This document shows positions 2,392-34,022 of a stretch of 34,309 nucleotides of DNA, piece by piece (within the stretch, counting starts at the first letter, position 1; each line of letters begins with the position of its first letter). The notes beneath the pieces were generated by a model. The model did no database searches, had not been told where the DNA came from, and was given only the letters and a program-made list of their open reading frames with translations. The stretch comes from a virus (lineage: Duplodnaviria; Heunggongvirae; Uroviricota; Caudoviricetes). The position numbers and the translations under genes were made by a program. The stretch lies in the IMG/VR virus record IMGVR_UViG_2872152978_000008; one strand, 5' to 3'.

Positions 2392-2577
2392 TTGACCATG
2401 TTTGATTACCAAGTTTCCAAACATCCATATTTTGATGAAGCCTGTCGTGCATTTGCACTGCGCCACAATCTGGTGCAACTGGCAGAACGTGCAGGCATGA
2501 ATGTGCAGATTCTGCGGAACAAGCTGAACCCAGCTCAGCCTCATTTATTAACCGCACCAGAAATCTGGCTGCTTTGA
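2392..2577 (+). pseudogene. cII: CII-like regulator truncated after ~60 aa by IS911
   Basis: [59 protein letters not shown] resembles the N-terminus of 186 CII (~169 aa, recalled). Its TGA stop is the first three bases of the IS911 left inverted repeat. Confidence 0.65.
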
Positions 2578-2646
2578 AGTGGCACACTGAATTTGGCCAC
2601 CTGAACAGAGGTGATATGCTCACCTCAGAACAACACAGGTGCTCCA

Positions 2647-3815
<1,169 letters not shown>

Positions 3816-3857
3816 CCACTTCACGCCAGAGTTTTATTTGAGATCGCAAACAGGGAG

Positions 3858-5984: not shown

Positions 5985-6055
5985 GTAAGCGTACAGCCTG
6001 AACCGTCTGGTCAGAATCTGACGAATTAGACAAAGTGGTGTCCACCAAATAAGTA

Positions 6056-6457
6056 GTGGGAACCAAAGTGTCAGATATGCAGAAAAATGTGAATCCCGGC
6101 AGGCGAAAAGGCTGCCCTAATTATCCTCCCGAATTTAAACAGCAGCTCGTTGCTGCCTCCTGTGAACCCGGGATATCCATCTCAAAACTTGCTCTTGAAA
6201 ATGGCATTAACGCCAATCTGTTGTTCAAATGGCGACAACAATGGCGCGAGGGAAAGCTGCTATTACCTTCTTCAGAGAGCCCCCAGCTACTTCCTGTGAC
6301 TCTCGATGCAGCTGCCGAACAGCCAGAATCGCTCGCAGAGGATCCGGAAACCCTCAGTATCAGCTGTGAGGTAACGTTCCGGCACGGGACGCTCCGCTTC
6401 AATGGCAATGTCAGCGAAAAGCTCCTGACTCTGCTGATACAGGAACTGAAGCGATGA
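6056..6457 (+). CDS. IS66-family accessory protein TnpA (orf1)
   Basis: First of three co-oriented ORFs inside the IS; true start may be the internal Met at ~6077. Confidence 0.7.
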   Translation: MGTKVSDMQKNVNPGRRKGCPNYPPEFKQQLVAASCEPGISISKLALENGINANLLFKWRQQWREGKLLLPSSESPQLLPVTLDAAAEQPESLAEDPETLSISCEVTFRHGTLRFNGNVSEKLLTLLIQELKR

Positions 6458-6801
6458 TCCCGTTACCTTCCGGGACCAAAATTTGGCTGGTTGCCGGTAT
6501 CACCGATATGAGAAATGGCTTCAACGGCCTGGCGGCAAAGGTGCAGACGACGCTGAAAGACGATCCGATGTCAGGTCACGTTTTTATCTTCCGTGGGCGT
6601 AATGGCAGTCAGGTAAAGCTCCTCTGGTCTACCGGCGATGGACTGTGTCTGCTGACCAAACGGCTGGAGCGCGGCCGCTTCGCCTGGCCGTCAGCCCGGG
6701 ATGGCAAAGTGTTCCTCACACCGGCACAGCTGGCGATGCTCCTTGAAGGTATCGACTGGCGGCAGCCTAAAAGACTGCTTACGTCCCTGACTATGTTGTA
6801 A
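6454..6801 (+). CDS. IS66-family TnpB (orf2)
   Basis: 115-aa ORF overlapping orf1 stop by 4 nt (ATGA), typical IS66 tnpB arrangement. Confidence 0.75.
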   Translation: MIPLPSGTKIWLVAGITDMRNGFNGLAAKVQTTLKDDPMSGHVFIFRGRNGSQVKLLWSTGDGLCLLTKRLERGRFAWPSARDGKVFLTPAQLAMLLEGIDWRQPKRLLTSLTML

Positions 6802-6849
6802 GCCTCTTTATCCTGGTCGACGCTGAATGAGCCTGGTAATATACCCGGT

Positions 6850-8387
6850 ATGAGCAGCTCACTTCCTGACGATATCAATGCACTGAAACGTCTCCTTGCC
6901 GAACAGGAGGCGCTGAACCGTGCCCTGCTGGAAAAGCTGAACGAGCGTGAACGCGAAATAGACCATCTGCAGGCACAGCTGGATAAGCTGCGCCGGATGA
7001 ACTTCGGCAGCCGCTCCGAAAAAGTCTCCGTCGTATCGCACAGATGGAAGCTGACCTGAAGGCACTTCAGAAAGAAAGTGATACCCTTACCGGTCGGGTT
7101 GACGACCCGGCCGTGCAGCGCCCGCTGCGTCAAACCCGCACCCGCAAACCGTTCCCCGAATCACTCCCCCGCGATGAAAAACGGCTGCTGCCGGCAGCGT
7201 CATGCTGCCCGGAATGTGGAGGCTCACTGAGCTATCCGGGTGAGGATGCCGCCGAACAGCTGGAGTTGATGCGCAGCGTCTTCCGGGTTATCCGGACTGT
7301 ACGTGAAAAGCATGCCTGTACTCAGTGCGATGCCATCGTGCAGGCCCCCGCGCCTTCACGGCCCATCGAGCGGGGTATCGCAGGACCGGGGCTGCTGGCC
7401 CGCGTGCTGATCTCAAAGTATGCAGAGCACACCCCGCTGTACCGCCAGTCTGAAATGTACGGCCGCCAGGGCGTGGAGCTGAGTCGTTCACTGCTGTCGG
7501 GCTGGGTGGATGCATGCTGCCGGCTACTGTCACCGCTGGAAGAAGCGCTTCAGGATTATGTGCTGACTGACGGTAAGCTCCATGCTGATGACACGCCTGT
7601 CCCGGTGCTGTTGCCAGGCAATAAGAAAACGAAGACCGGGCGGTTATGGACCTACGTTCGTGACGACCGTAACGCCGGGTCAACGCTGGCGCCGGCGGTG
7701 TGGTTCGCTTACAGCCCGGACAGAAAAGGCATCCATCTGCAGACCCATCTTGCGGGGTTCAGTGGTGTACTGCAGGCGGATGCATACGCCGGGTTCAACG
7801 AGCTGTACCGGGATGGCCGGATAACGGAAGCCGCCTGTTGGGCTCACGCCCGCCGTAAAATCCACGATGTGCACGTTCGCACCCCGTCAGCCCTGACGGA
7901 GGAAGCGCTGAAACGGATCGGCGAACTGTACGCCATCGAGGCAGAGATAAGGGGAATGACGGCGGAGCAGCGCCTTGCCGAACGTCAGTTGAAAACGAAA
8001 CCGCTGCTGAAATCCCTGGAAAGCTGGCTGCGTGAAAAGATGAAAACCCTGTCGCGACACTCAGAACTGGCGAAAGCGTTCGCATACGCCCTGAACCAGT
8101 GGCCGGCGCTGACGTACTATGCAGATGATGGCTGGGCTGAGGCGGACAATAATATCGCTGAAAATGCGTTGCGGATGGTCAGTCTGGGCCGCAAAAACTA
8201 CCTGTTCTTCGGTTCGGATCATGGAGGAGAGCGGGGAGCGCTGCTGTACAGCCTGATCGGGACGTGCAAACTGAACGGAGTGGAGCCAGAAAGCTACCTC
8301 CGCTATGTACTTGACGTCATAGCCGACTGGCCGATAAACCGGGTCGGCGAACTGCTCCCCTGGCGCGTAGCACTGCCGACTGAATAA
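6850..8387 (+). pseudogene. IS66-family transposase TnpC carrying a frameshift near 7027-7035
   Basis: ORF 6850-7059 (MSSSLPDDINALKRLLAEQE...) and ORF 7044-8387 overlap in different frames. Adding one base in GTCTCCGTCGT restores a continuous reading ...[18 protein letters not shown].... Confidence 0.75.
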
Positions 8388-8424
8388 CACATCCCCGTCA
8401 ATACGGTTCTTGCTGCACGCTTAC

Positions 8425-10068: not shown

Positions 10069-10167
10069 CGTAGATCATGCAGGTGCATGAAAACCACTAC
10101 ATAAAGCGGGCAGGTAATGCTGCCAACTTACTGATTTAGTGTATGATGGTGATTTTAAGGTGCTTGC

Positions 10168-10443
10168 GTGGCTTCCATTTCCATCAGATGTCCTTCCTGC
10201 TCCGCTACTGAAGGCGTGGTGCGTAACGGCAAAAGCACTGCCGGACATCAGCGCTATCTCTGCTCTCATTGCCGTAAAACATGGCAACTACAGTTCACTT
10301 ACACCGCCTCTCAGCCCGGTACGCACCAGAAAATCATTGATATGGCCATGAATGGCGTCGGATGTCGCGCCAGTGCACGCATTATGGGCGTTGGCCTCAA
10401 CACGGTTTTACGTCACTTAAAAAACTCAGGCCGCAGTCGGTAA
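10168..10443 (+). CDS. insA: IS1 InsA
   Basis: [42 protein letters not shown]... is the canonical IS1 InsA. Confidence 0.9.
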
Positions 10444-10865
10444 CCTCGCGCATACAACCGGGCAGTGATGTGATTGTCTGCGCTGAAATGGACGAACAGT
10501 GGGGCTACGTCGGTGCTAAATCACGTCAGCGCTGGCTGTTTTACGCGTATGACAGGATACGGAGGACGGTTGTGGCGCACGTCTTCGGTGAACGCACTCT
10601 GACCACACTGGAGCGTCTTCTGAGCCTGCTGTCGGCCTTTGAGGTCGTGGTATGGATGACGGATGGCTGGCCGCTGTATGAATCACGCCTGAAGGGAAAG
10701 CTGCACGTTATCAGCAAGCGTTACACTCAGCGCATTGAGCGACATAATCTGAATCTGAGACAACATCTGGCAAGGCTGGGACGGAAGTCACTGTCGTTCT
10801 CAAAATCGGTGGAGCTGCATGACAAGGTCATCGGGCATTATCTGAACATAAAACACTATCAGTAA
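10362..10865 (+). CDS. insB: IS1 InsB (expressed as InsAB' by -1 frameshift)
   Basis: -1 frame relative to insA; canonical IS1 InsB sequence. Confidence 0.85.
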
Positions 10866-10889
10866 GTTGGAGTCATTACCAGCGGGCAG

Positions 10890-10910: not shown

Positions 10911-10976
10911 GCGCTAGGTATAAGTGTGTAAAATAATTCCAAAATAAATCATCACCAATGAAGTGAGAGGGTAATA

Positions 10977-12626
10977 ATGTTAGTCAAGAAAAATAAAAAT
11001 TATAGTTTATATTTTTTAATTACAAATAATCAACAGATATCTGATTCTGGTAATTATATAAAAATAGTCCCATCAAGAAGCGATTGGAATGATTTTGGAT
11101 ATTTGAGTAGAGTCGAAATATCTATTTTTAATAAAAAAGAGTGTAAGGATATAATTTCACTGAATGGTTATATTGGTTTTTTGAATTCAGAGGAGGAACG
11201 AAATGGAAAAGCAGAACTGATAAGGCGAGTGAAAAAAAAGGAAGAATCTAATTTAAAGGATGAGGGGTTTAATGATTATTTTGTCATGCTTCAGGATATG
11301 AATAATTATCGAAGACTAGTAAGATTTTTTGGGGTGAATGAATCCAAATATATATTAAATTTCATTAATGATGTTGTTTCTAAGAAAAGTGACGCTAGTG
11401 CAGAGAATTTGAGGAAAAAAGCAATCTCTTCTGATATCTTTAATAAATCTTTCATTAGAGAGTCTGAGTCGTATTTTACTTTCAAAAATGCAGGAACAGT
11501 TCTTTCCGGTATTCAATATGAGGAGTTGGGTAATTTATCACAGCACATCAAGATTAGCTATTCGAATAAAGTTAATGAAGAAGATGTATCTTATGTTTTT
11601 AATTTTGATCACGAGCATGATTTACCAAAAAGAATTTCCATAATTATAGGCGAGAATGGTGTAGGAAAAAGCCAAACGCTTAGAGAAATCGCATTGGCTG
11701 CGATTAAAGGAAAGGATAATTTGGTGGCTGTAGTTGATTCTAACGGTGTGAGCATTGAAGAACGAATTCAAATTAGTAGGCTCATTGCTTTTTCTCCAAC
11801 AAATGAAAGTAAGTGTTCATTTCCAACCGATAAAAGAATAAAATCATTGATATGGTACAAAAGATTGACTTTAAATCGTGAATCAAAATCCAAATTAAAC
11901 TTGAATGATTTAATAGTGCAACTAGCGAGGAGTAACGACGCTATCGGCTATAATCAAAGGTGGAATATATTTGTTGATGCACTGAGTGTTCTAAATAGTA
12001 ACAACGATTTAGTAATCAAATGTGGCGGTGAAAATTCACCATTTGTTAAATTAAATGAGCTTAATTCTCGAGGCGAAGAATCTAGACTATCATTATATTC
12101 TGAAATTATTCTCTCTGGCGAGCCTTTGAGGCTTATTGAAAATAAATGTTACCCTTTGAGTAGTGGGGAAATATCGTTTATTAAGTTTTGTGTACAAGTC
12201 TGTTTGTATATTGAGAATGGGACTCTTCTATTAATAGATGAGCCAGAAACACATCTCCATCCTTCATTTATTAATAAATTTATGGCATTGCTTGATAATT
12301 TATTAGAAAAGACAGGCTCTTCAGCTATCATAGCAACGCATTCGGTTTATCTTGTTCGGGAGGTTTTTAAGGAGCAAGTGACAATACTCAGAAGACGAGA
12401 TGATGGGGTAATTGTTAGCGAAAAACCGAGATTGAGTACTTTTGGGGCGAATATAGGAAATATCTCATATTTTGTTTTCGGTGAGAGTGAACCAACTCAA
12501 ATTTTAAATAAAGTAAAAAACAATATAATTGCAAAGAATATGTCTTGGGATGATGTTGAATCTAAATATAGCGAGGACTTATCACTTAATGTATTAACTG
12601 CGTTGAGAAATGAAATGGGCAATTGA
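10977..12626 (+). CDS. ABC/AAA15-type ATPase with ~220-aa N-terminal extension (PtuA-like defence ATPase candidate)
   Basis: Walker A GENGVGKSQ (~aa 226), ABC signature-like LSSGE, Walker B LLLIDEPETHLHP, H-loop ATHS. GAGAGGG SD before ATG. Very AT-rich relative to the flanking prophage. Confidence 0.75.
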   Translation: MLVKKNKNYSLYFLITNNQQISDSGNYIKIVPSRSDWNDFGYLSRVEISIFNKKECKDIISLNGYIGFLNSEEERNGKAELIRRVKKKEESNLKDEGFNDYFVMLQDMNNYRRLVRFFGVNESKYILNFINDVVSKKSDASAENLRKKAISSDIFNKSFIRESESYFTFKNAGTVLSGIQYEELGNLSQHIKISYSNKVNEEDVSYVFNFDHEHDLPKRISIIIGENGVGKSQTLREIALAAIKGKDNLVAVVDSNGVSIEERIQISRLIAFSPTNESKCSFPTDKRIKSLIWYKRLTLNRESKSKLNLNDLIVQLARSNDAIGYNQRWNIFVDALSVLNSNNDLVIKCGGENSPFVKLNELNSRGEESRLSLYSEIILSGEPLRLIENKCYPLSSGEISFIKFCVQVCLYIENGTLLLIDEPETHLHPSFINKFMALLDNLLEKTGSSAIIATHSVYLVREVFKEQVTILRRRDDGVIVSEKPRLSTFGANIGNISYFVFGESEPTQILNKVKNNIIAKNMSWDDVESKYSEDLSLNVLTALRNEMGN

Positions 12627-13491
12627 AATGAATAAATTAAAAAGACCTGTTTTTAAAGATTATTCTGCATTTAAAAAACTATCTGCAAATAAGAGATTAA
12701 AACATCATTCTGTTCTGAATGGACAGGATACATTTATACTTAATGCATATAGATCGTACATAAAGAATAAAGGGTATCTTAATGTCAATTCTTGTGGCGT
12801 ATTGAGTAACAATATTGCTGAAGCTTTGAGATATTATTATAACAATCCCGCAAAGTGTTTATCTATAATTGATGATATAAGAGCAGCTAATTCTAACTCT
12901 CTATGTCCAATGTGTGGTTCAATGCATAGCGGGACTTTGGATCATGTTTTACCCAAGGAAAACTATCCAGAATTTTCTTTATTCACTAAGAATTTGGTTC
13001 CTGCTTGCAAATGTAATACTTTCAAAAGTACTACTATAGCTAATTCTGCAGGCCATCGGATGCTGCATCCATATTTTGATAATATATTAAAACAAAGATT
13101 AATATGTGCTAATTTTTCTAAATTAGGGCGAACACCTACAATTGATGTAAAAATCATAATTGACCCAATGTCACCAGAATATAACAATGTTAAGTATCAT
13201 CTTGATAATGTTGTTATCAAGAATAATATTAAGGGGTATTTGTCTGAACAATGGGAGTCGTTTTACTTATATCCTGAGCTTGTTATTAGAGGACTGAATA
13301 AGAGTCTTTCTACTTATAGCGATGTATATGAGTTGTTGACTCGCGAGTTGTTGCTGTTGGATGAAAAACATAAAGGTAAAAATAATTGGAATTCGGTTTT
13401 TGTAGCTGGGTTAATTCGACCTGATGTGATTAGGTGGATACTCTGTGAATTACATTTAGGTAACAGAAGTCCAGACGGTCGTCTCATATGA
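12610..13491 (+). CDS. HNH endonuclease (PtuB-like defence nuclease candidate)
   Basis: CPMCGSMHSGTLDHVLPKENYPEFSLFTKNLVPACKCNTFK carries the CxxC...DH...N...CxCN HNH/zinc-finger signature. Start overlaps the ATPase stop by 17 nt (alternative ATG at 12628), suggesting translational coupling. Confidence 0.75.
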   Translation: MKWAIEMNKLKRPVFKDYSAFKKLSANKRLKHHSVLNGQDTFILNAYRSYIKNKGYLNVNSCGVLSNNIAEALRYYYNNPAKCLSIIDDIRAANSNSLCPMCGSMHSGTLDHVLPKENYPEFSLFTKNLVPACKCNTFKSTTIANSAGHRMLHPYFDNILKQRLICANFSKLGRTPTIDVKIIIDPMSPEYNNVKYHLDNVVIKNNIKGYLSEQWESFYLYPELVIRGLNKSLSTYSDVYELLTRELLLLDEKHKGKNNWNSVFVAGLIRPDVIRWILCELHLGNRSPDGRLI

Positions 13492-13527: not shown

Positions 13528-13647
13528 AAATTCATAAAAACTGCTGCCTATTAATAAATTTTTTTAGCTGAGTTAAAGAACCTCATTTAGTGATTACGTT
13601 AAGTAGCTAGTTTATAACTATCAAATTTAACAATGTTCTCACTTACC

Positions 13648-14628
13648 AATTTATTTCCATCATTCTTTTTTGTAACGGTATTAACTCGTTACGTACAAAC
13701 ACCAGGCTCGCCTTCTCCACATCCCCAAACCCCCGACATTATTAGGCATAATCCCCATCATTTGCGGTGGCACACGATGCGCCGCCATCATGTCATCCCG
13801 GCTCACGTTCTTGATGTTCAGAAACTCATCCTTCGCCGCGACTTCTGACAACGGGATGATCTGAAGCCCGTCCTTTTTGCCGTTAGGCGAGTACATAAAC
13901 AGATTGCGGAAGTTACCTGGTCCTTTGGCGCTTTTCATCGCATTGCGGAGGTTGTTCACATCCTCCTGGTTTTGCGCGGCATCGGTCATGTACATGATGA
14001 AGCCTGCATGACTGCCGTTAATGTAATACTATCGGCGGAACAGCGTGGCGGACTCGTTGAGCAGGGCTGACGGAATGGCAGAAAGGTAACCTGGCAGGCC
14101 GTAGATCTCTTGGTTGATGTCCGGTTCCATCAGATGAAAGATGCTTCCTTTCGTGAACTGATACGGCTGCGTGGTCATGCCGTATTGCACAAACCAGTAG
14201 GTATCCAGGTCTAATCCGCGTCGGGTGTATTTTGCCAGAGCAGGCTCAAGAGCGATGACCTCTCCGAACCGGTTTGTGCGTTTCTCCAGGTAAGCGTTAC
14301 CAAATACCAGATAATCCTGCACAAAACGTGAAAAAGCCTGCTGGCTGAGCAGCGGGTGAGGGATGTAGGTACTGATCAGAATGTTGCATTTCACCGCAAT
14401 TGGTGAACTGTGATGCACGGCGGCGCGGAAGGTGCGCGCCAGTCCGTCAAAACTCACTGGCGGCTCATACCAGCGATCTGTCTGTACGCATTCCACATAG
14501 TCCAGTAGTTCACGGCGGTCCAGAACCGGAACGGGATCGCCGAAGCTGAATGCTTCGGCTGAAGTCTGGTTTTTATGCTGGGTCTGTTTCGTCGCCGCAG
14601 CGCGGTTCTTCTTACTCTTTCCCATCAA
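13648..14628 (-). pseudogene. Q: Portal protein gpQ with in-frame TAG (14029-14031) and a probable 1-bp deletion near 13727-13729
   Basis: ORFs 14029-14628 and 13681-13995 share a frame: ...ATLFRR*YYINGSHAGFIMYMTD.... Downstream the frame decays to GGLGMWRRRAWCLYVTS*, while adding one T restores a protein-like GGFGDVEKASLVFVRNELIPLQ... continuation to ~13648. Confidence 0.8.
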
Positions 14629-24309: not shown

Positions 24310-25481
24310 ATGGCTCAGGATTACCACCACGGGGTGCGCGTTGTTGAAGTCAACGAAGGCACCCGATCCATTACCACGGTGAGCACCGCCATCGTGGGTA
24401 TGGTCTGCACGGGCGATGATGCCGATGCAAAAATGTTTCCTCTTAATAAACCTGTGCTGATCACTGATGTGCTGACCGCCAGCGGTAAAGCGGGTGAGTC
24501 TGGCACGCTGGCCCGTTCGCTGGATGCCATCGCTGACCAGGCAAAACCCGTGACCGTTGTTGTGCGTGTGCCGCAGGGTGAAACGGAAGAAGAAACCACA
24601 ACCAATATCATTGGCGCAGTGACCGCCGAGGGTAAAAAAACAGGTATGAAAGCCCTGTTATCTGCCCAGTCACAGCTCGGCGTTAAACCGCGCATTCTCG
24701 GCGTGCCAGGTCACGACACGAAGGCGGTAGCTACTGAGTTGCTGAGCGTGGCGCAAAGCCTGCGTGGATTTGCTTACCTGTCAGCGTATGGTTGCAAGAC
24801 GGTGCAGGAAGCAATCACTTACCGTGAAAACTTCAGTCAGCGTGAAGGAATGCTGATCTGGCCCGACTTTACTGGCTGGGACACGGTGCTGAATGCCGAA
24901 GCAACGGCTTATGCCACCGCCCGTGCGCTCGGTCTGCGCGCTAAAATTGATGAGCAGACCGGATGGCACAAAAGCCTGTCCAACGTGGGCGTGAACGGTG
25001 TCACCGGAATTTCTGCTGATGTGTTCTGGGATCTGCAGAACCCGGCAACCGATGCAGGTCTGCTTAACCAGAACGATATCACCACGCTTATCCGCAAAGA
25101 CGGTTTCCGCTTCTGGGTTCCCGCTGTCTGAGCGATGATCCGCTCTTTGCCTTCGAAAACTACACCCGCACGGCGCAGGTGCTGATGGACACGATGGCAG
25201 AAGCGCACATGTGGGCGGTGGACAAACCGCTGAACCCGTCGCTGGCCCGCGACATTATCGAAGGTATCCGCGCCAAAATGCGTAGCCTGGTCAGTCAGGG
25301 CTATCTCATTGGTGGTGATTGCTGGCTGGACGAGTCGGTGAACGATAAAGACACGCTGAAAGCCGGGAAACTCACCATCGATTACGACTACACGCCAGTG
25401 CCGCCACTTGAAAACCTGATGCTGCGTCAGCGCATCACCGATCAGTACCTGGTGAATTTCTCCAGCCAGGTCAGCGCGTAA
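24310..25481 (+). pseudogene. FI: Tail sheath protein FI with a -1 frameshift in the G-run at 25115-25117
   Basis: ORF 24310-25131 ends ...[10 protein letters not shown]. Inserting one G restores ...[35 protein letters not shown]..., which joins ORF 25179-25481. Confidence 0.85.
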
Positions 25482-25490
25482 GGGGACAAC

Positions 25491-26006
25491 ATGGCTTTAC
25501 CACGCAAATTAAAACACCTGAACCTGTTTAACGACGGGAACAACTGGCAGGGGATCGTTGAGTCGCTGACGCTGCCGAAATTCACCCGCAAATATGAGAA
25601 GTATCGCGGCGGCGGTATGCCCGGAGCGGTGGATGTGGATCTGGGACTGGATGACAGTGCACTGGATACAGAATTTTCCATTGGTGGTACTGAACTGCTG
25701 CTGTTTAAGCAGATGGGCAAAGCCACGGTGGATGGCATCCAGCTGCGCTTTACCGGCTCTATTCAGCGTGATGATACCGGGGAAGTGCAGGCCGTGGAGC
25801 TTGTGGTGCGTGGACGTCACAAAGAAGTAGATTCCGGCGAGTGGAAGACGGGCGAAAGCAACACTACCAAAGTGACCAGTACCAACAGCTACGCGAAGCT
25901 GACCATCAATGGTGAGGTGCTCTATGAAGTGGACCTGATCAACATGGTGGAAATTGTGGACGGTGTGGACCTGATGGAAGCGCACCGCAACGCCCTCGGC
26001 CTCTGA
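25491..26006 (+). CDS. FII: Tail tube protein FII
   Basis: 171 aa directly after FI, as P2 FII. Confidence 0.85.
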   Translation: MALPRKLKHLNLFNDGNNWQGIVESLTLPKFTRKYEKYRGGGMPGAVDVDLGLDDSALDTEFSIGGTELLLFKQMGKATVDGIQLRFTGSIQRDDTGEVQAVELVVRGRHKEVDSGEWKTGESNTTKVTSTNSYAKLTINGEVLYEVDLINMVEIVDGVDLMEAHRNALGL

Positions 26007-26060
26007 TGTATCTGAACGGCGCGGAATGCCGCGCCAGAACCTAATTTACAGGACAACAAA

Positions 26061-26363
26061 ATGAGCGATAAGCAGACTGAAAAGACCATTCAACTGGATA
26101 CTCTCATCATGCGCGGTAAAACAGAAATTACCGAAATTGTGTTGCGTAAACCGCAGTCCGGTGCGCTGCGCGGCACACGCCTGCAGGCCATTATGGATAT
26201 GGATGTGAACGCGATGATGACCGTGATCCCCCGCATCTCCAGTCCGGCACTGACTGCACAGGAAATTGCAGAGATGGACCCGGCAGATCTCACTGCCATG
26301 TCGGTTGAGGTTGTCACTTTTTTGTTGAAGAAGTCGGTGCTTGCCGGTTTACCGACAGCCTGA
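26061..26363 (+). CDS. E: Tail assembly chaperone gpE
   Basis: 100-aa ORF between FII and T, with a T6G slip site near its 3' end. Confidence 0.75.
   Translation: MSDKQTEKTIQLDTLIMRGKTEITEIVLRKPQSGALRGTRLQAIMDMDVNAMMTVIPRISSPALTAQEIAEMDPADLTAMSVEVVTFLLKKSVLAGLPTA
26318..26324 (+). other. T TTT TTG slippery heptamer for programmed -1 frameshift producing E+E' (extension to ~26497)
   Basis: The -1 frame after the heptamer is open for 57 codons (VEEVGACRFTDSLTVDDLVADIATIFHWPPSV...SGASHE*) and ends overlapping the T start. Conserved chaperone frameshift of long-tailed phages. Confidence 0.6.
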
Positions 26364-26489
26364 CGGTTGACGATCTGGTGGCTGATATCGCCACCATCTT
26401 TCACTGGCCGCCATCCGTTACTGACGTTATGCCGCTGACCGAAGTGCTGGAATGGCGGGATAAAGCGATTCAGAGAAGCGGGGCCAGCC

Positions 26490-29400
26490 ATGAGTGACAA
26501 TAACCTGCGTCTGCAGGTGATTCTTAATGCGGTTGACAAACTCACCCGCCCATTTCGATCCGCGCAGGCCAGTTCAAGAGAACTGGCTGCTGCTGTCAAA
26601 AAATCCCGCGATGCAATAAAGCAGCTTGATCAGGCCGGGAGCAGTCTGGACAGCTTCCGAAAGCTGCAGGCAGAAAATCAGAAATTAGGCGACAGGCTGA
26701 ACTATGCCCGCCAGCGTGCAAATTTGCTCAGTCAGGAACTGGGAGCGATGGGGCCGCCTTCGCAACGTCAGGTTGTTGCTCTGGGCCGTCAACGGCTGGC
26801 TGTTCAGCGCCTGGAAGAACGCCAGAAAAAGCTGCAGCAGCAGACGGCGCTTGTGCGTGCAGAACTTTATCGTGCTGGTATTTCAGCTAATGATGGCGCC
26901 AGTGCGACGGCCCGCATTACCCGTGAAACGATGCGTTATAACAGGCAGCTTTCTGAGCAGGAAGCGAGGTTACGACGTGTCGGGGAGCAACAGCGAAAAA
27001 TGCACGCCGCCCGGGGGCTTACGCCAGGCGTCTTGAGGTAAGGGATCGTATTGCAGGTGCCGGAGCCACCACCACGGCTGCAGGGCTGGCAATGGGCGCA
27101 CCAGTGATGGCGGCAGTAAAAAGCTATACCAGCATGGAAGATGCCATGAAAGGTGTGGCAAAGCAGGTCAATGGTCTGCGTGACGATAATGGCAACCGCA
27201 CTGCGCGTTTTTACGAAATGCAGGGTGCCATCAAGGCTGCCAGCGAACAGTTGCCGATGGAAAACGGTGCTGTGGACTTCGCCGCACTGGTTGAAGGTGG
27301 TGCGCGCATGAACGTCGCAAACCCTGACGACAGCTGGGAAGACCAGAAACGTGACCTGCTGGCCTTCGCCAGCACGGCGGCAAAGGCGGCAACAGCCTTT
27401 GAACTGCCAGCGGATGAACTGTCAGAAAGTCTGGGGAAAATCGCCCAGCTCTACAAAATCCCTACCCGCAATATTGAGCAGCTCGGTGATGCGCTGAACT
27501 ATCTGGATGATAACGCCATGTCGAAAGGGGCGGACATCATTGATGTCATGCAACGCCTGGGCGGTGTGGCTGACCGTCTGGATTATCGTAAAGCGGCGGC
27601 GCTGGGTTCCACCTTCCTGACACTCGGCGCTGCGCCTGAGGTTGCAGCCAGTGCAGCAAACGCGATGGTGCGTGAATTGTCCATTGCCACCATGCAAAGC
27701 AAGAGTTTCTTTGAAGGGATGAATCTGCTGAAACTCAATCCAGAAGTGATTGAAAAGCAGATGACGAAGGATGCGATGGGAACTATCCAGCGGGTGCTGG
27801 AGAAGGTGAATGCGCTGCCACAGGATAAGCGCCTGTCTGCCATGACCATGTTGTTTGGTAAAGAGTTTGGCGATGACGCAGCGAAACTGGCAAACAACCT
27901 GCCGGAACTTCAGCGCCAGTTAAAACTGACTGCGGGCAATGATGCGCTCGGTTCCATGCAGAAAGAATCCGACATCAACAAGGATTCACTTTCTGCTCAG
28001 TGGTTGCTGGTCAAAACCGGAGCACAGAACACCTTCAGCAGCCTGGGGGAAACGCTGCGCCAGCCGCTGATGGATATTCTGTACACGGTGAAAAGCGTCA
28101 CGGGGGCGTTGCGTCGCTGGGTGGAAGCTAACCCGGAACTGACGGGCACTCTGATGAAAGTAGCCGCTGTGGTAGCTGCCGTTACCGTGGGCCTCGGCAC
28201 CTTAGCGGTGGCGCTGGCTGCAGTGCTGGGGCCGCTGGCAGTCATCCGTCTGGGATTCTCTGTGCTGGGTATCAAAACGTTACCTTCCGTTACGGCAGCA
28301 GTAACCCGAACCAGCAACGCGTTGTCCTGGCTGGCTGGCGCACCACTGGCACTGCTGCGACGCGGGCTTGCTTCATCGGGCAACGCTGCAGGTTTACTTA
28401 CTGCGCCGTTGTCGTCTTTGCGCCGCACGGCATCACTGACGGGAAATGTCCTGAAAACTGTAGCAGGTGCGCCGGTTGCACTTTTGCGGTCTGGATTATC
28501 CGGTTTACGTGCGGTTGCTGTGATGTTTATGAATCCACTGGCGGTACTACGCGGCGGACTGGCTGCCACAGGCACGGTGCTGCGTATGCTCGCATCCGGT
28601 CCACTGGCGATGCTGCGCGTTGCCCTGTATGCCGTCTCTGGTCTGTTAGGTGCTCTGCTCAGTCTGATAGGTCTTGTGGTTACTGCACTGGCGGGTGTGG
28701 CGCTGGTTGTCTGGAAATACTGGCAGCCCATCACCACATTTCTCGGTGGCGTGGTGGAAGGATTCAAAGCGGCGGCAGGTCCTGTCAGTGCCGCGTTCGA
28801 ACCGCTTAAGCCTGTGTTCCAGTGGATTGGCGACAAAGTACAGGCGCTGTGGGGCTGGTTTACTGATCTGCTGACGCCCGTTAAGTCGACCTCTGCCGAA
28901 CTGCAGAGTGCAGCGGCAATGGGGCGACGATTCGGGGAGGCTCTGGCGGAAGGGCTGAATATGGTCATGCATCCGCTGGACTCCCTGAAATCCGGCGTTT
29001 CCTGGTTGCTGGAGAAACTTGGCATTGTCAGTAAAGAGGCCGCAAAGGCGAAACTGCCGGAAAGCGTGACGCGTCAGCAACCTGCGACGGTGAATGCAGA
29101 CGGTAAAGTGATGATGCCATCGGGTGGTTTTCCGTCATGGGGATATGGCTTTGCGGGGATGTATGACAGCGGCGGGTATATCCCGCGCGGGCAGTTTGGC
29201 ATCGTCGGTGAAAACGGGCCGGAAATTGTTAACGGCCCGGCAAATGTGACCAGCCGGAGAAATACAGCTGCACTGGCTGCCGTTGTTGCCGGAATGATGG
29301 GTGTTGCTGCTACGCCAGCAGAGCTTCCACCGTTGCACCCTTTGGCACTTCCCGCGAAAGGCGGTGAAGCGATGGTGAGTCGTGCAGCCACTGTGCCGCC

Positions 29401-31689: not shown

Positions 31690-33375
31690 TTATCCTAATC
31701 CTGGCCATACCATGACGATGATTGTCCCTGCCAGCGTCAGCAGGACGTTGGCGATTGCGTAGGTGCCCGCATAGCCCAGCGCAGGGATGTTACTGCGAGC
31801 TGTATCACTGATGATCTCCATTGCCGGCGCGCAGGTGCGTGCGCCCATCATTGCGCCGAACAACAGTGCGCGGTTCATTCGCAATACATAAGCACCGAAC
31901 AAGAAACAGATAACCACGGGCACAAGACTGACAATTAATCCGGCAATCAACATCTGACCGCCAATCGCGGCCAGGCCGTTATTAATACCGCTACCGGCGC
32001 TCAGACCAACGCCTGCCATAAACACCATCAAGCCGAACTCTTTCACCATGCTTAATGCACCTTGCGGAATGTAACCGAAGGTCGGGTGGTTAGCACGCAT
32101 AAAGCCCAGCATAATTCCGGCGAATAACAACCCGGCAGCGTTCCCCATGCCGAAACTGAATGTGCTGAACTGGAAGGTGATCATCCCGATCATCAGCCCA
32201 ATAACAAAGAAGGCGCAAAATGCCAGCAGGTCAGTGACCTGGCTGTGAATCGAGATAAAGCCGATGCGATCGGCAATGGTTTTTACGCGACGGGCATCAC
32301 CGCTGACTTGTAAAACGTCACCTTTGTTAAGCACGACGTTGTCATCTATCGGCATCTCAATCTGGCTACGAATGACGCGGTTAAGGAAGCAACCGTGATC
32401 GGTCAACTTCAGTTGTGCGAGACGTTTACCTACAGCGTTATGGTTTTTAACGACCACTTCTTCAGTGACGATACGCATGTCGAGAAGGTCACGATCGAAA
32501 ACTTCTTTACCGTTACGGAAGCTGGGATCGAGTCGGGCATGGGCGTCGGGATAGCCTACCAACGCTATTTCATCGCCCATTTGTAGCACGGCATCACCGT
32601 CTGGATTTGCCAGAATCCCGTTACGTCGAATACGTTCAATGTAGCAGCCGGTTTGTCGATAAATACCCAGTTCACGCAGATTTTTGCCGTCGGTCCAGGC
32701 CACCAGCTCCGGGCCGACGCGATAGGCGCGGATCACCGGTAAATAAACCTTACGGTTGGCATCAGTGTCCAGGCCACGTTCGCGGGCGATTTGCTGGGCG
32801 CTGGTCTGTAAGTCCTGATGCTGCAATTTCGGCAAGTAACGCGCACCAACAATCAAACTCACCAGACCGATTAAATAGGTTAAGGCATACCCGAGGCTCA
32901 GATTATCCAGTGCCAGTGAGAGCTGCCTGCTTTCCATGCCGGAATGACGCAGTGTATCGCCAGCACCGACCAGAACCGGTGTCGACGTCATAGAGCCTGC
33001 TAACATACCGGCCGTCAGGCCAATATCCCAGCCAAACAGCTTACCTAACCCTAAGGCGATCACCAGCGCACTGCCAACCATCACCAGTGCTAACATTAGG
33101 TAATTTTTCCCATCGCGAAAAAAAATGGAAAAAAAGTTCGGTCCGGCTTCGACCCCGACGCAGAAAATAAACAGCATAAAGCCAAGATTAAGCGCATCGG
33201 TGTTAATGCTGAAATGTTGTTGGCCTAATAACAGCGATACGACTAAAACGCCAATGGAATTACCCAGTTGGATCGAACCAAGTCGTAACTTTCCGAGACA
33301 TAGCCCAAGCGCGAGGACCACAAATAATAACAGAATGTAATTCCCATTTAACAATTCGGCGACGTTTATATTCAC
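31690..33375 (-). CDS. ybjL: Putative AAE-family transporter YbjL
   Basis: 561-aa membrane protein with two TrkA-C-like soluble domains between transmembrane halves; recognised as E. coli YbjL. Confidence 0.9.
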
Positions 33376-33644
33376 GGAGGCTAACTTCTTGTTTACTAGT
33401 AAGCTGTTGAAAGAAATGGTAATTTACGATAATGTTTTTTACCAGAATTCAGGGCGCAGATTCATTCAGCGCACCTAAACGATAGTAAAGTAACAATGTA
33501 TTTTACTAGTGTAATCACATTAGGTATCAACGGCTATATGAATTGCGTTGGCCTATATTAGCATGGAATGCGAAGCGGCTTTATCTTACTGAACGCCACA
33601 CTGGCGAAAAATGTGTTCGATAGACGCAGTGTCAGGAGGAACGA

Positions 33645-34022
33645 GTGAAACATAAACAACGTTGGGCGGGGGCAATCTGCTGTTTTGTCCTCTTCATTGT
33701 GGTGTGCCTTTTTCTGGCGACGTACATGAAAGGCGCTTTTCGGGCTGCCGGGCATCCTGAAATCGGCTTGCTGTTTTTCATTCTTCCTGGAGCAGTTGCC
33801 AGTTTCTTTTCACAGCGTAGAGAAGTCCTGAAACCTCTATTTGGCGCAATGCTGGCGGCACCCTGTTCAATGCTCATTATGCGGCTGTTTTTTTCACCGA
33901 CGCGCTCATTCTGGCAAGAGCTGGCATGGTTACTAAGCGCGGTGTTCTGGTGTGCGCTGGGGGCACTGTGTTTCTTATTTATCAGTAGTTTGTTTAAACC
34001 ACAGCACAGAAAAAATCAGTAA
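33645..34022 (+). CDS. ybjM: Inner membrane protein YbjM
   Basis: 125-aa hydrophobic protein between ybjL and grxA, as in the E. coli chromosome. Confidence 0.8.
   Translation: MKHKQRWAGAICCFVLFIVVCLFLATYMKGAFRAAGHPEIGLLFFILPGAVASFFSQRREVLKPLFGAMLAAPCSMLIMRLFFSPTRSFWQELAWLLSAVFWCALGALCFLFISSLFKPQHRKNQ

Follow-up and report, generated by a model that had tools for sequence, protein, structure and literature searches.

The N-terminal domain of a Septu-like ATPase of the Ea59 type encoded in a decayed P2-like prophage

PtuA-type ATPases and the pair compared with them

Septu systems of Escherichia coli (structures 8EE4, 8EEA and 8SUX; system EcB88) are two-gene operons, in which an ATPase of the ATP-binding cassette (ABC) type, PtuA, is combined with an HNH nuclease, PtuB. 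The same arrangement is found in the pair of genes considered here, which lies in the IMG/VR virus record IMGVR_UViG_2872152978_000008 (34,309 nucleotides, analysed as a whole and referred to below as the window). In the Septu PtuA proteins studied structurally or mechanistically the Walker A motif is located within the first ~50 residues (EcB88 has K43 as its Walker A lysine and D316 as its Walker B aspartate; PMC13096335), while in the window ATPase it is preceded by an additional domain (the N-domain), which is absent from every Septu or retron PtuA studied in either way. Sequence conservation and structure modelling indicate that the N-domain is real, conserved and confidently predicted, with no detectable structural relative. 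As to its meaning, we lean, if only slightly, towards the view that residues 1-190 define an Ea59 branch of Septu-like defence pairs, named after the phage lambda protein of the same architecture, and that the N-domain is an input module gating the ATPase–HNH complex. Pairs of this branch consist of an ABC ATPase of ~475-565 residues and a translationally coupled HNH nuclease of ~280 residues.

The closest solved folds to the window ATPase are those of the PtuA–PtuB complexes of retrons Ec78/Eco7 and Ec83: a whole-chain Foldseek search against the PDB returned the PtuA proteins of retrons Ec83 and Ec78/Eco7 and of E. coli Septu as the top matches, followed by ABC transporters, OLD and Rad50. 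The PtuA of retron Ec78 carries an N-terminal extension of ~65 residues, which wedges into the reverse transcriptase, touches the non-coding RNA and is absent from stand-alone PtuA (PMC12819146). This helical extension is a different element from the N-domain of the window protein. Neither the open reading frames (ORFs) of the window nor the intact loci of its relatives contain a reverse transcriptase, the neighbours being a DinI-like gene, IS1 and the portal gene, and no msr/msd is evident beside the pair, no RNA-family search having been made. The substrate of Septu EcB88 is tRNA-Tyr (PMC13096335), which is the substrate of retron Eco7 as well (PMC12673091).

At the sequence level, the likeness to canonical PtuA is limited. 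With the PtuA chain of 8EE4, phmmer aligns residues 415-548 of the window protein, that is, the likeness is confined to the C-terminal half of the ATPase, and the NCBIfam PtuA model NF041760 scores 41 bits at a cut-off of 500. The partner proteins differ as well, the window nuclease being ~287 residues long compared with about 200 residues for one canonical PtuB-type partner listed by Rousset et al. (2022). Other defence systems, such as P2 Old, PARIS (AriA/AriB), Gabija (GajA) and WonAB, also combine an AAA_15/AAA_21-type ABC ATPase with a paired or fused nuclease and are often found in prophage hotspots. Their nucleases are of the TOPRIM type in Old, AriB and GajA and of the PD-(D/E)xK type in WonB, in contrast to the HNH nuclease of the window, and none of these systems has been reported with an N-domain of the window type. 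Searches against Pfam revealed no Toprim or DUF4435 match in either protein of the pair, the motif of the partner being HNH. Identity with WonAB was considered and rejected on the grounds of the Walker A lysine of WonA, which is K34 (PMC12137116), and of its PD-(D/E)xK partner.

The N-domain and the ATPase core

When residues 1-190 were modelled alone by AlphaFold2, the predicted local distance difference test score (pLDDT) was 86.8 and the predicted template modelling score (pTM) 0.84. The predicted layout comprises five beta-strands (residues 2-68), a helix (77-90), a further strand (101-105) and a helical bundle (108-176). Since residues 191-224 belong to the ABC fold, being beta-strands that run into the P-loop, the model places the end of the extra domain at about residue 190 and not at 225. 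No Pfam or NCBIfam family was found on residues 1-225, and no Pfam match recurred among 28 homologous N-domains. A profile search of the PDB gave no relatives of the N-domain, and a fold search gave none in the PDB or BFVD. The original prediction, made from the letters of the window, had described a domain of about 220 residues without recognisable motifs ahead of a Walker A motif at about residue 226. The domain and its conservation stand, whereas its length has to be reduced to ~190 residues; the Walker A motif, exactly at residues 225-232, is indeed far from the N-terminus when compared with K43 in EcB88 and K34 in WonA; and the absence of recognisable motifs holds for Pfam, NCBIfam, PDB and BFVD alike. 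The structure prediction and similarity search suggested on that occasion yielded a confident model and no known fold.

In an alignment of 120 homologues the N-terminal region is free of gaps, with a mean identity of 37% compared with 54% for the remaining protein, and 17 of its residues are invariant in a diverse set: P32, N38, D39, F40, G67, M104, L105, Y111, R112, D132, F159, R161, K170, N171, G178, E182 and S188. The signature most widely conserved across the superfamily, WNDFG, takes there the form DNW(N/D)D(F/Y)G, and D39, D132 and R161 (window numbering) persist across the wider superfamily. The gap-free conservation and the invariant residues argue that this region is translated and does not result from a mis-called start. 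The ATG at 10977 is preceded, at a distance of 6 nucleotides, by the GAGG core of a strong ribosome-binding site, GAGAGGG, and is the start assigned by PGAP (product name "AAA family ATPase") in three complete E. coli genomes, in which the region is 99.4-99.7% identical to that of the window. One database representative of the family (537 residues) is annotated 12 residues shorter, which could be taken to mean that the real start codon is internal and that no extension exists. We regard this as barely conceivable, as the sequence is conserved from about residue 10, in lambda Ea59 as well as in homologues of just 40% identity, the ribosome-binding site belongs to the start at 10977, and the only methionines upstream of the core, M104 and M108, lie inside the most conserved motif. 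Thus the mis-called start, which the original prediction had named as a way in which it could fail, is excluded by conservation together with the ribosome-binding site.

The N-domain was also described initially as rich in lysine and asparagine. This is true of the present allele (K 9.8%, N 10.7%), whose gene has a G+C content of 32% compared with 51% for the whole window, but not of the family: homologous N-domains are on average acidic (mean pI 6.2), which indicates that the richness is an effect of low G+C content in this allele and not a family trait. The net charge of the N-domain ranges from -13 to +6 among the homologues, and a basic nucleic-acid-binding domain was rejected as a general property on this basis. 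Likewise, a PD-(D/E)xK nuclease site was sought in the beta-sheet half, where P32 and S/D33 are followed by a strand, and was rejected, the (D/E)xK part being unconserved in the alignments. This result, together with the presence of a dedicated nuclease in the operon, makes an enzymatic or effector function of the N-domain itself, for instance in modifying nucleotides or nucleic acids, very unlikely, in spite of its invariant acidic, basic and amide residues and the superfamily-wide retention of D39, D132 and R161.

The ATPase core has the motifs of an intact Septu-type ATPase. Pfam AAA_21 matches residues 221-460 (E 3e-16), and Walker A, the ABC signature, Walker B and the H-loop are all invariant in an alignment of 62 sequences, in which G225, N227, G228, G230, K231 and S232 of Walker A do not vary. 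The distance between the Walker A lysine and the Walker B aspartate is 190 residues (K231-D421) compared with 273 (K43-D316) in EcB88; in other words, the window core is ~83 residues shorter between the Walker motifs, and 190 residues are added in front of it. The full-chain AlphaFold2 model, built from the same 62-sequence alignment, has a pLDDT of 81 and a pTM of 0.81, and this high pTM suggests that the N-domain is probably packed on the ATPase core and not loosely tethered. The sole low-confidence segment of the model is the motif TFGAxxGxISYFVFGE (pLDDT below 50 at residues 490-504). As this segment is invariant yet unfolded in the monomer model, it is suggested to be a candidate interface with another subunit or a partner.

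The same observations bear on another explanation of the N-domain, namely that it is architectural and mediates oligomerisation of the ATPase or docks the HNH partner, in place of the longer helical insertion of canonical PtuA. The fixed arrangement of N-domain and core implied by the full-chain pTM, the short distance between the Walker motifs, and the mostly aromatic or hydrophobic nature of the conserved positions (F40, M104, L105, Y111, F159 and the FFSLG/YY motif) would all fit such a function, and the larger HNH partner (~280 versus ~200 residues) offers additional surface to which a further domain of the ATPase could bind. However, the invariant polar residues N38, D39, R112, D132, R161, K170, N171 and E182 resemble a binding site more than a packing surface; the N-domain, like the C-terminal tail, diverges faster than the core (~70% versus 85% identity among close relatives); and in the solved PtuA–PtuB complexes the nuclease is reported, according to the cited literature, on the C-terminal side of PtuA. 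Taken as the explanation of the domain, the architectural reading is possible but on the doubtful side, and a role in assembly or docking is nearly as plausible as a role in input.

The HNH partner, phage lambda Ea59/Ea31 and the catalogued family

The start codon of the HNH gene lies 1 nucleotide past the stop codon of the ATPase gene. Among the 19 loci of alpha-, beta- and gammaproteobacteria that were checked systematically, all 19 have a full-length HNH homologue of ~280 residues directly behind the ATPase gene, 5-50 nucleotides downstream. The partner is also present in ten plasmid loci, including those of Firmicutes, Actinobacteria and Bacteroides, one of the ten records in fact being that of phage lambda. 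The linkage of the two genes is strict. The 25 best PADLOC matches of the window partner are all PDC-M01B models (PDLC04270, E 1e-33), while the retron-type HNH model TIGR02646 gives only E 0.07.

The ATPase, too, finds its best PADLOC match in PDC-M01, with the PDC-M01A model PDLC04242 aligning over residues 27-539 (E 3e-55). The PDC-M01A models include the N-domain, as PDLC04244 matches residues 20-225 alone (E 2e-11). Another of them, PDLC04236, which has 388 positions, leaves the N-domain uncovered, its match starting near residue 194 of the window ATPase; this model may be restricted to the core or truncated. PDC-M01 is an unpublished candidate system overlapping with Septu calls (PMC11811056), that is, a catalogue entry which has neither a published description nor a published test. 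In PHROGs, the ATPase is covered over residues 12-549 by PHROG 8066, and the PHROGs of this family are annotated as of unknown function.

The same two-gene architecture, with the N-domain, occurs in the b region of phage lambda as Ea59 (525 residues) and Ea31 (296 residues). By tblastn, residues 21-549 of the window ATPase, or 96% of the protein, align with Ea59 (E 6e-13), at an identity of ~24% only. The N-domain profiles of the two proteins align over 135 columns with an hhalign probability of 97.7% (E 2e-12), and the HNH cores of the window partner and Ea31 with E 2e-15; in the window, this stretch is the one at 12904-13017. Walker A is located at residue 195 of Ea59, the N-domain of the window protein being ~25-30 residues longer and having an extra conserved SESYFxFKNA helix. 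The lambda pair lies next to int (at about 25396-27860 of the phage genome), and the window pair in the old/tin hotspot of P2. Ea59 is a near-perfect match of the PDC-M01A model PDLC04235 (E 4e-201), Ea31 matches PDC-M01B, and the PADLOC "PtuA1" model PDLC00282, which is essentially the Ea59 clade, hits Ea59 with E 5e-184 and the window ATPase with E 1e-31. The genes ea59/ea31 are the archetype of PDC-M01 and of one PADLOC "PtuA1" model. The window pair fits the type they represent, in which an N-domain of ~165-225 residues with W(N/D)D(F/Y)G, FFSLG..YY and L..L.D stands before Walker A, and the gene directly downstream encodes an HNH protein of ~270-296 residues.

System 17 of the P4 hotspot in the survey of Rousset et al. 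(2022), labelled there "Septu (Doron et al., 2018)", also carries this N-domain, its Walker A being located at residue 211, and Table S5A of that survey (P2 hotspot) lists the proteins of the window itself as "AAA_21/AAA_15 + hypothetical"; it gives no sign that this pair was tested. The architecture with a long N-terminus is thus already within what databases and one paper call Septu. The suggestion that it could mark an undescribed variant of ATPase–nuclease defence families is not supported, being anticipated by PDC-M01A/B, PHROG 8066, lambda Ea59/Ea31 and the "Septu" pair of Rousset et al. (2022). A related check, whether the domain is one known from PtuA, gave a divided answer: it is absent from solved PtuA proteins and differs from the extension of retron Ec78, whereas the "Septu" pair just mentioned carries it. 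The pair is best described as an uncharacterised variant, the domain of which is unstudied and the family of which is catalogued (as PDC-M01, as PHROG 8066, as PADLOC "PtuA1" and as "Septu" in the table of Rousset et al.). In our literature search we found no paper connecting ea59 with Septu or naming the accessions of the window proteins, and no established function for Ea59/Ea31.

A profile of the N-domain retrieved only 268 proteins from 1.84 billion representative sequences, and the best 150 of these are almost all proteins of 530-580 residues, with the domain at the N-terminus, or fragments. Because the search returned almost solely this architecture or fragments of it, the N-domain appears to be dedicated to this ATPase. 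Stand-alone N-domain proteins were considered and rejected: the short matches have scattered lengths, suggesting contig-end fragments, although the contigs were unchecked. In some members, extra modules precede the N-domain (DUF4062 in two proteins and AbiJ_NTD3 in one), and the copies on plasmids of Bacteroides and Rhodococcus have a further 130-170 unassigned residues ahead of it. These cases show that the N-terminus of the family grows by modular accretion.

Searching plasmids with the ATPase core by tblastn yielded 121 records, and the N-domain was also matched by tblastn in the eight closest only. The distant plasmid relatives have 165-200 residues before Walker A and an HNH gene behind, and their N-termini share with that of the window protein the motifs DNW(N/D)D(F/Y)G, G.(V/I)KI, FFSLGQ..YY..L, L..L.D and SL.R. 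As a whole, the pair ranges over Proteobacteria, Firmicutes, Actinobacteria and Bacteroides and is carried by plasmids, islands resembling integrative and conjugative elements (ICEs), P2 and P4 hotspots and phage lambda. Its relatives have integrases, conjugation genes, toxin-antitoxin genes and methyltransferase/Vsr genes as neighbours: one member is in an ICE-like island, adjoining an integrase and a RES-domain gene, and others have next to them an integrase gene together with genes for HipA-type toxins, or a gene pair for a cytosine methyltransferase and Vsr. The window region is a rare allele in E. coli, where 3 of 5426 complete genomes have it. In assemblies of the Shigella type it is common, and 694 contigs, the majority of them under the name of Shigella or E. 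coli, encode exactly this ATPase.

Several "plasmids" of PLSDB among these records (NZ_CP104294.1, NZ_CP068597.1 and NZ_CP082339.1, attributed to Stenotrophomonas, Paenibacillus and Salmonella) are 48,499-48,502 bp long, which is the length of lambda, and have its gene order, with int followed by ea59 and ea31. The records probably represent lambda itself, as would happen if a sequencing control was taken for a plasmid in the assembly.

The carrier prophage and the role of the pair

In the P2-like prophages of intact relatives, the pair has a DinI-like gene or the replication gene gpA on one side and gpQ, the portal gene, on the other. The gpA–gpQ locus is the cos-proximal hotspot which holds old and tin in P2 (Rousset et al., 2022, PMC9122126), and the window pair is cargo of this defence hotspot in a decayed prophage. 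The features of the window are collected in Table 1.

Table 1. Position of the ATPase–HNH pair, its motifs and the neighbouring features in the window.
Feature	Position	Strand	Remarks
IS3-family transposase (rve domains)	about 2976-3815		inside block ~2575-3820
IS66-family element (HTH_Tnp_1 ORF and DDE_Tnp_IS66 transposase)	5986-8424		interrupts P2-type replication gene gpA; ~8-9 bp duplication CATTGACGG
IS1 (insA/insB)	10114-10880	+	same strand as ATPase gene; 9-bp target duplication AGCGGGCAG
Shine-Dalgarno sequence GAGAGGG of ATPase gene	10965-10971	+	read directly from sequence
ATPase ORF, 549 residues	10977-12626	+	1650-nucleotide gene
Ea59-type N-domain, residues 1-190 (predicted)	10977-11546	+	AlphaFold2, alignments
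WNDFG motif, residues 37-41	11085-11099	+	most widely conserved N-domain signature across the superfamily
ABC-type ATPase core and C-terminal helical tail, residues 191-549 with stop codon	11547-12626	+	
Walker A GENGVGKS, residues 225-232	11649-11672	+	
ABC signature LSSGE, residues 394-398	12156-12170	+	
Walker B LLLIDEPE, residues 417-424	12225-12248	+	
H-loop ATHS, residues 453-456	12333-12344	+	
TFGAxxGxISYFVFGE, residues 488-503	12438-12485	+	invariant motif
HNH nuclease partner, 287 residues	12628-13491	+	PADLOC PDC-M01B; PHROG 18937; PGAP "HNH endonuclease"
HNH / zinc-finger motif CPMCG...LDH...N...CKCN, partner residues 93-130	12904-13017	+	D104-H105, N122
Portal gene gpQ pseudogene	13590-14628	-	compared with intact E. 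coli prophage

The prophage is defective, as follows from its insertion sequences (IS) and from the lesions of gpQ, which comprise a change of Lys to a stop at codon 200 and two frameshifting deletions, of 4 bp at 13649 and of 1 bp at 13730. The block at ~2575-3820 replaces ~1.8 kb of the early genes of the intact prophage. The ATPase–HNH pair is itself intact, the two proteins being 99.8% and 100% identical, respectively, to those of the intact E. coli prophage copy. IS1 ends 96 nucleotides upstream of the ATPase start, and a scan of these 96 nucleotides, which is not firm on expression, found no sigma-70-like promoter; IS1 may have separated the pair from its native promoter or, alternatively, may supply its transcription by read-through.

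Elsewhere in the prophage, the tail-sheath ORF at 24310-25131 has only 273 residues and is possibly another truncation. A fragment of a 186/P2-type integrase gene and a CI repressor gene are found at one end of the prophage (430-2024), and ybjL-like (Asp-Al_Ex/TrkA_C) and ybjM genes flank it on the other side (31690-34022), which gives the likely region of integration.

A defensive function of the pair is favoured by its position in the hotspot, by the mobile-island neighbours of its relatives, by homology to the PDC-M01 and PtuA models and by the intact ATPase motifs. Alternatively, the pair could serve the phage, for example as an early accessory nuclease that takes part in host takeover or recombination, or is directed at competing elements or at the defences of the host. 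Ea59 and Ea31 of lambda are full-length homologues, both of which are dispensable for plaque formation (PMC10695390), and the family is one to which PHROGs assign no function, all of which is compatible with an accessory role of this kind. Most members, however, are found on plasmids, ICE-like and chromosomal islands and not in the early regions of lytic phages; in the window, both genes have stayed intact while the surrounding prophage was inactivated, which argues for a benefit to the host; and the locus is the P2 hotspot of phage-exclusion genes. We therefore consider the benefit to the phage unlikely. In lambda, ea59 and ea31 are early lytic genes transcribed from pL, which is in keeping with that alternative and does not readily fit a defence expressed by a lysogen.

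The idea that the N-domain has a sensor or targeting role, put forward in the original prediction, is plausible by analogy, and the reading towards which we lean, an input module gating the complex, develops it as follows. By analogy with the Septu PtuA–PtuB complex, the ATPase would oligomerise and keep the HNH nuclease inactive within the complex. The N-domain, packed on the ATPase, would bind a phage-derived trigger or relay the trigger to the nucleotide-binding sites. The nuclease could then be released or activated and cut host or phage nucleic acid, and the infection would be aborted, as is supposed from Septu and retron PtuAB. The arguments for an input or regulatory module are that the N-domain and the C-terminal tail diverge faster than the core, that domains of conflict systems (DUF4062, AbiJ_NTD3) are sometimes fused ahead of it, and that the unrelated add-on of retron Ec78 PtuA contacts a regulator (PMC12819146).

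Several points, besides the expression of ea59/ea31 from pL, weigh against this reading. The defensive function of the pair and of PDC-M01, as well as the role of the N-domain, is argued by analogy, and a domain lacking fold relatives offers no ligand or partner to be deduced. Simple binding of nucleic acids is not indicated, since the net charge is unconserved. The faster divergence of the N-domain is modest and fits a peripheral structural domain equally well. Finally, given the ~83-residue shorter stretch between the Walker motifs, the N-domain may replace the structural insertion of EcB88 instead of adding a sensor. The bolder statement, that the N-domain is a new fold and the phage-sensing input of a large Septu-like ATPase–HNH branch, is possible, though less likely than not.

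The structural and mechanistic knowledge of Septu and retron PtuAB derives wholly from ATPases without the N-domain, while the Ea59 branch is widespread. Learning the binding partner of the N-domain would reveal the way in which this branch is activated and would give lambda ea59/ea31 a role. Tools for the annotation of defence systems would gain too, as they now place such pairs under differing names (Septu, PDC-M01 or "AAA ATPase + hypothetical"). If the N-domain does sense phage, then the systems catalogued as Septu would hold two mechanistically distinct classes, and the same mechanism would explain ea59 and ea31, the orphan genes of lambda.

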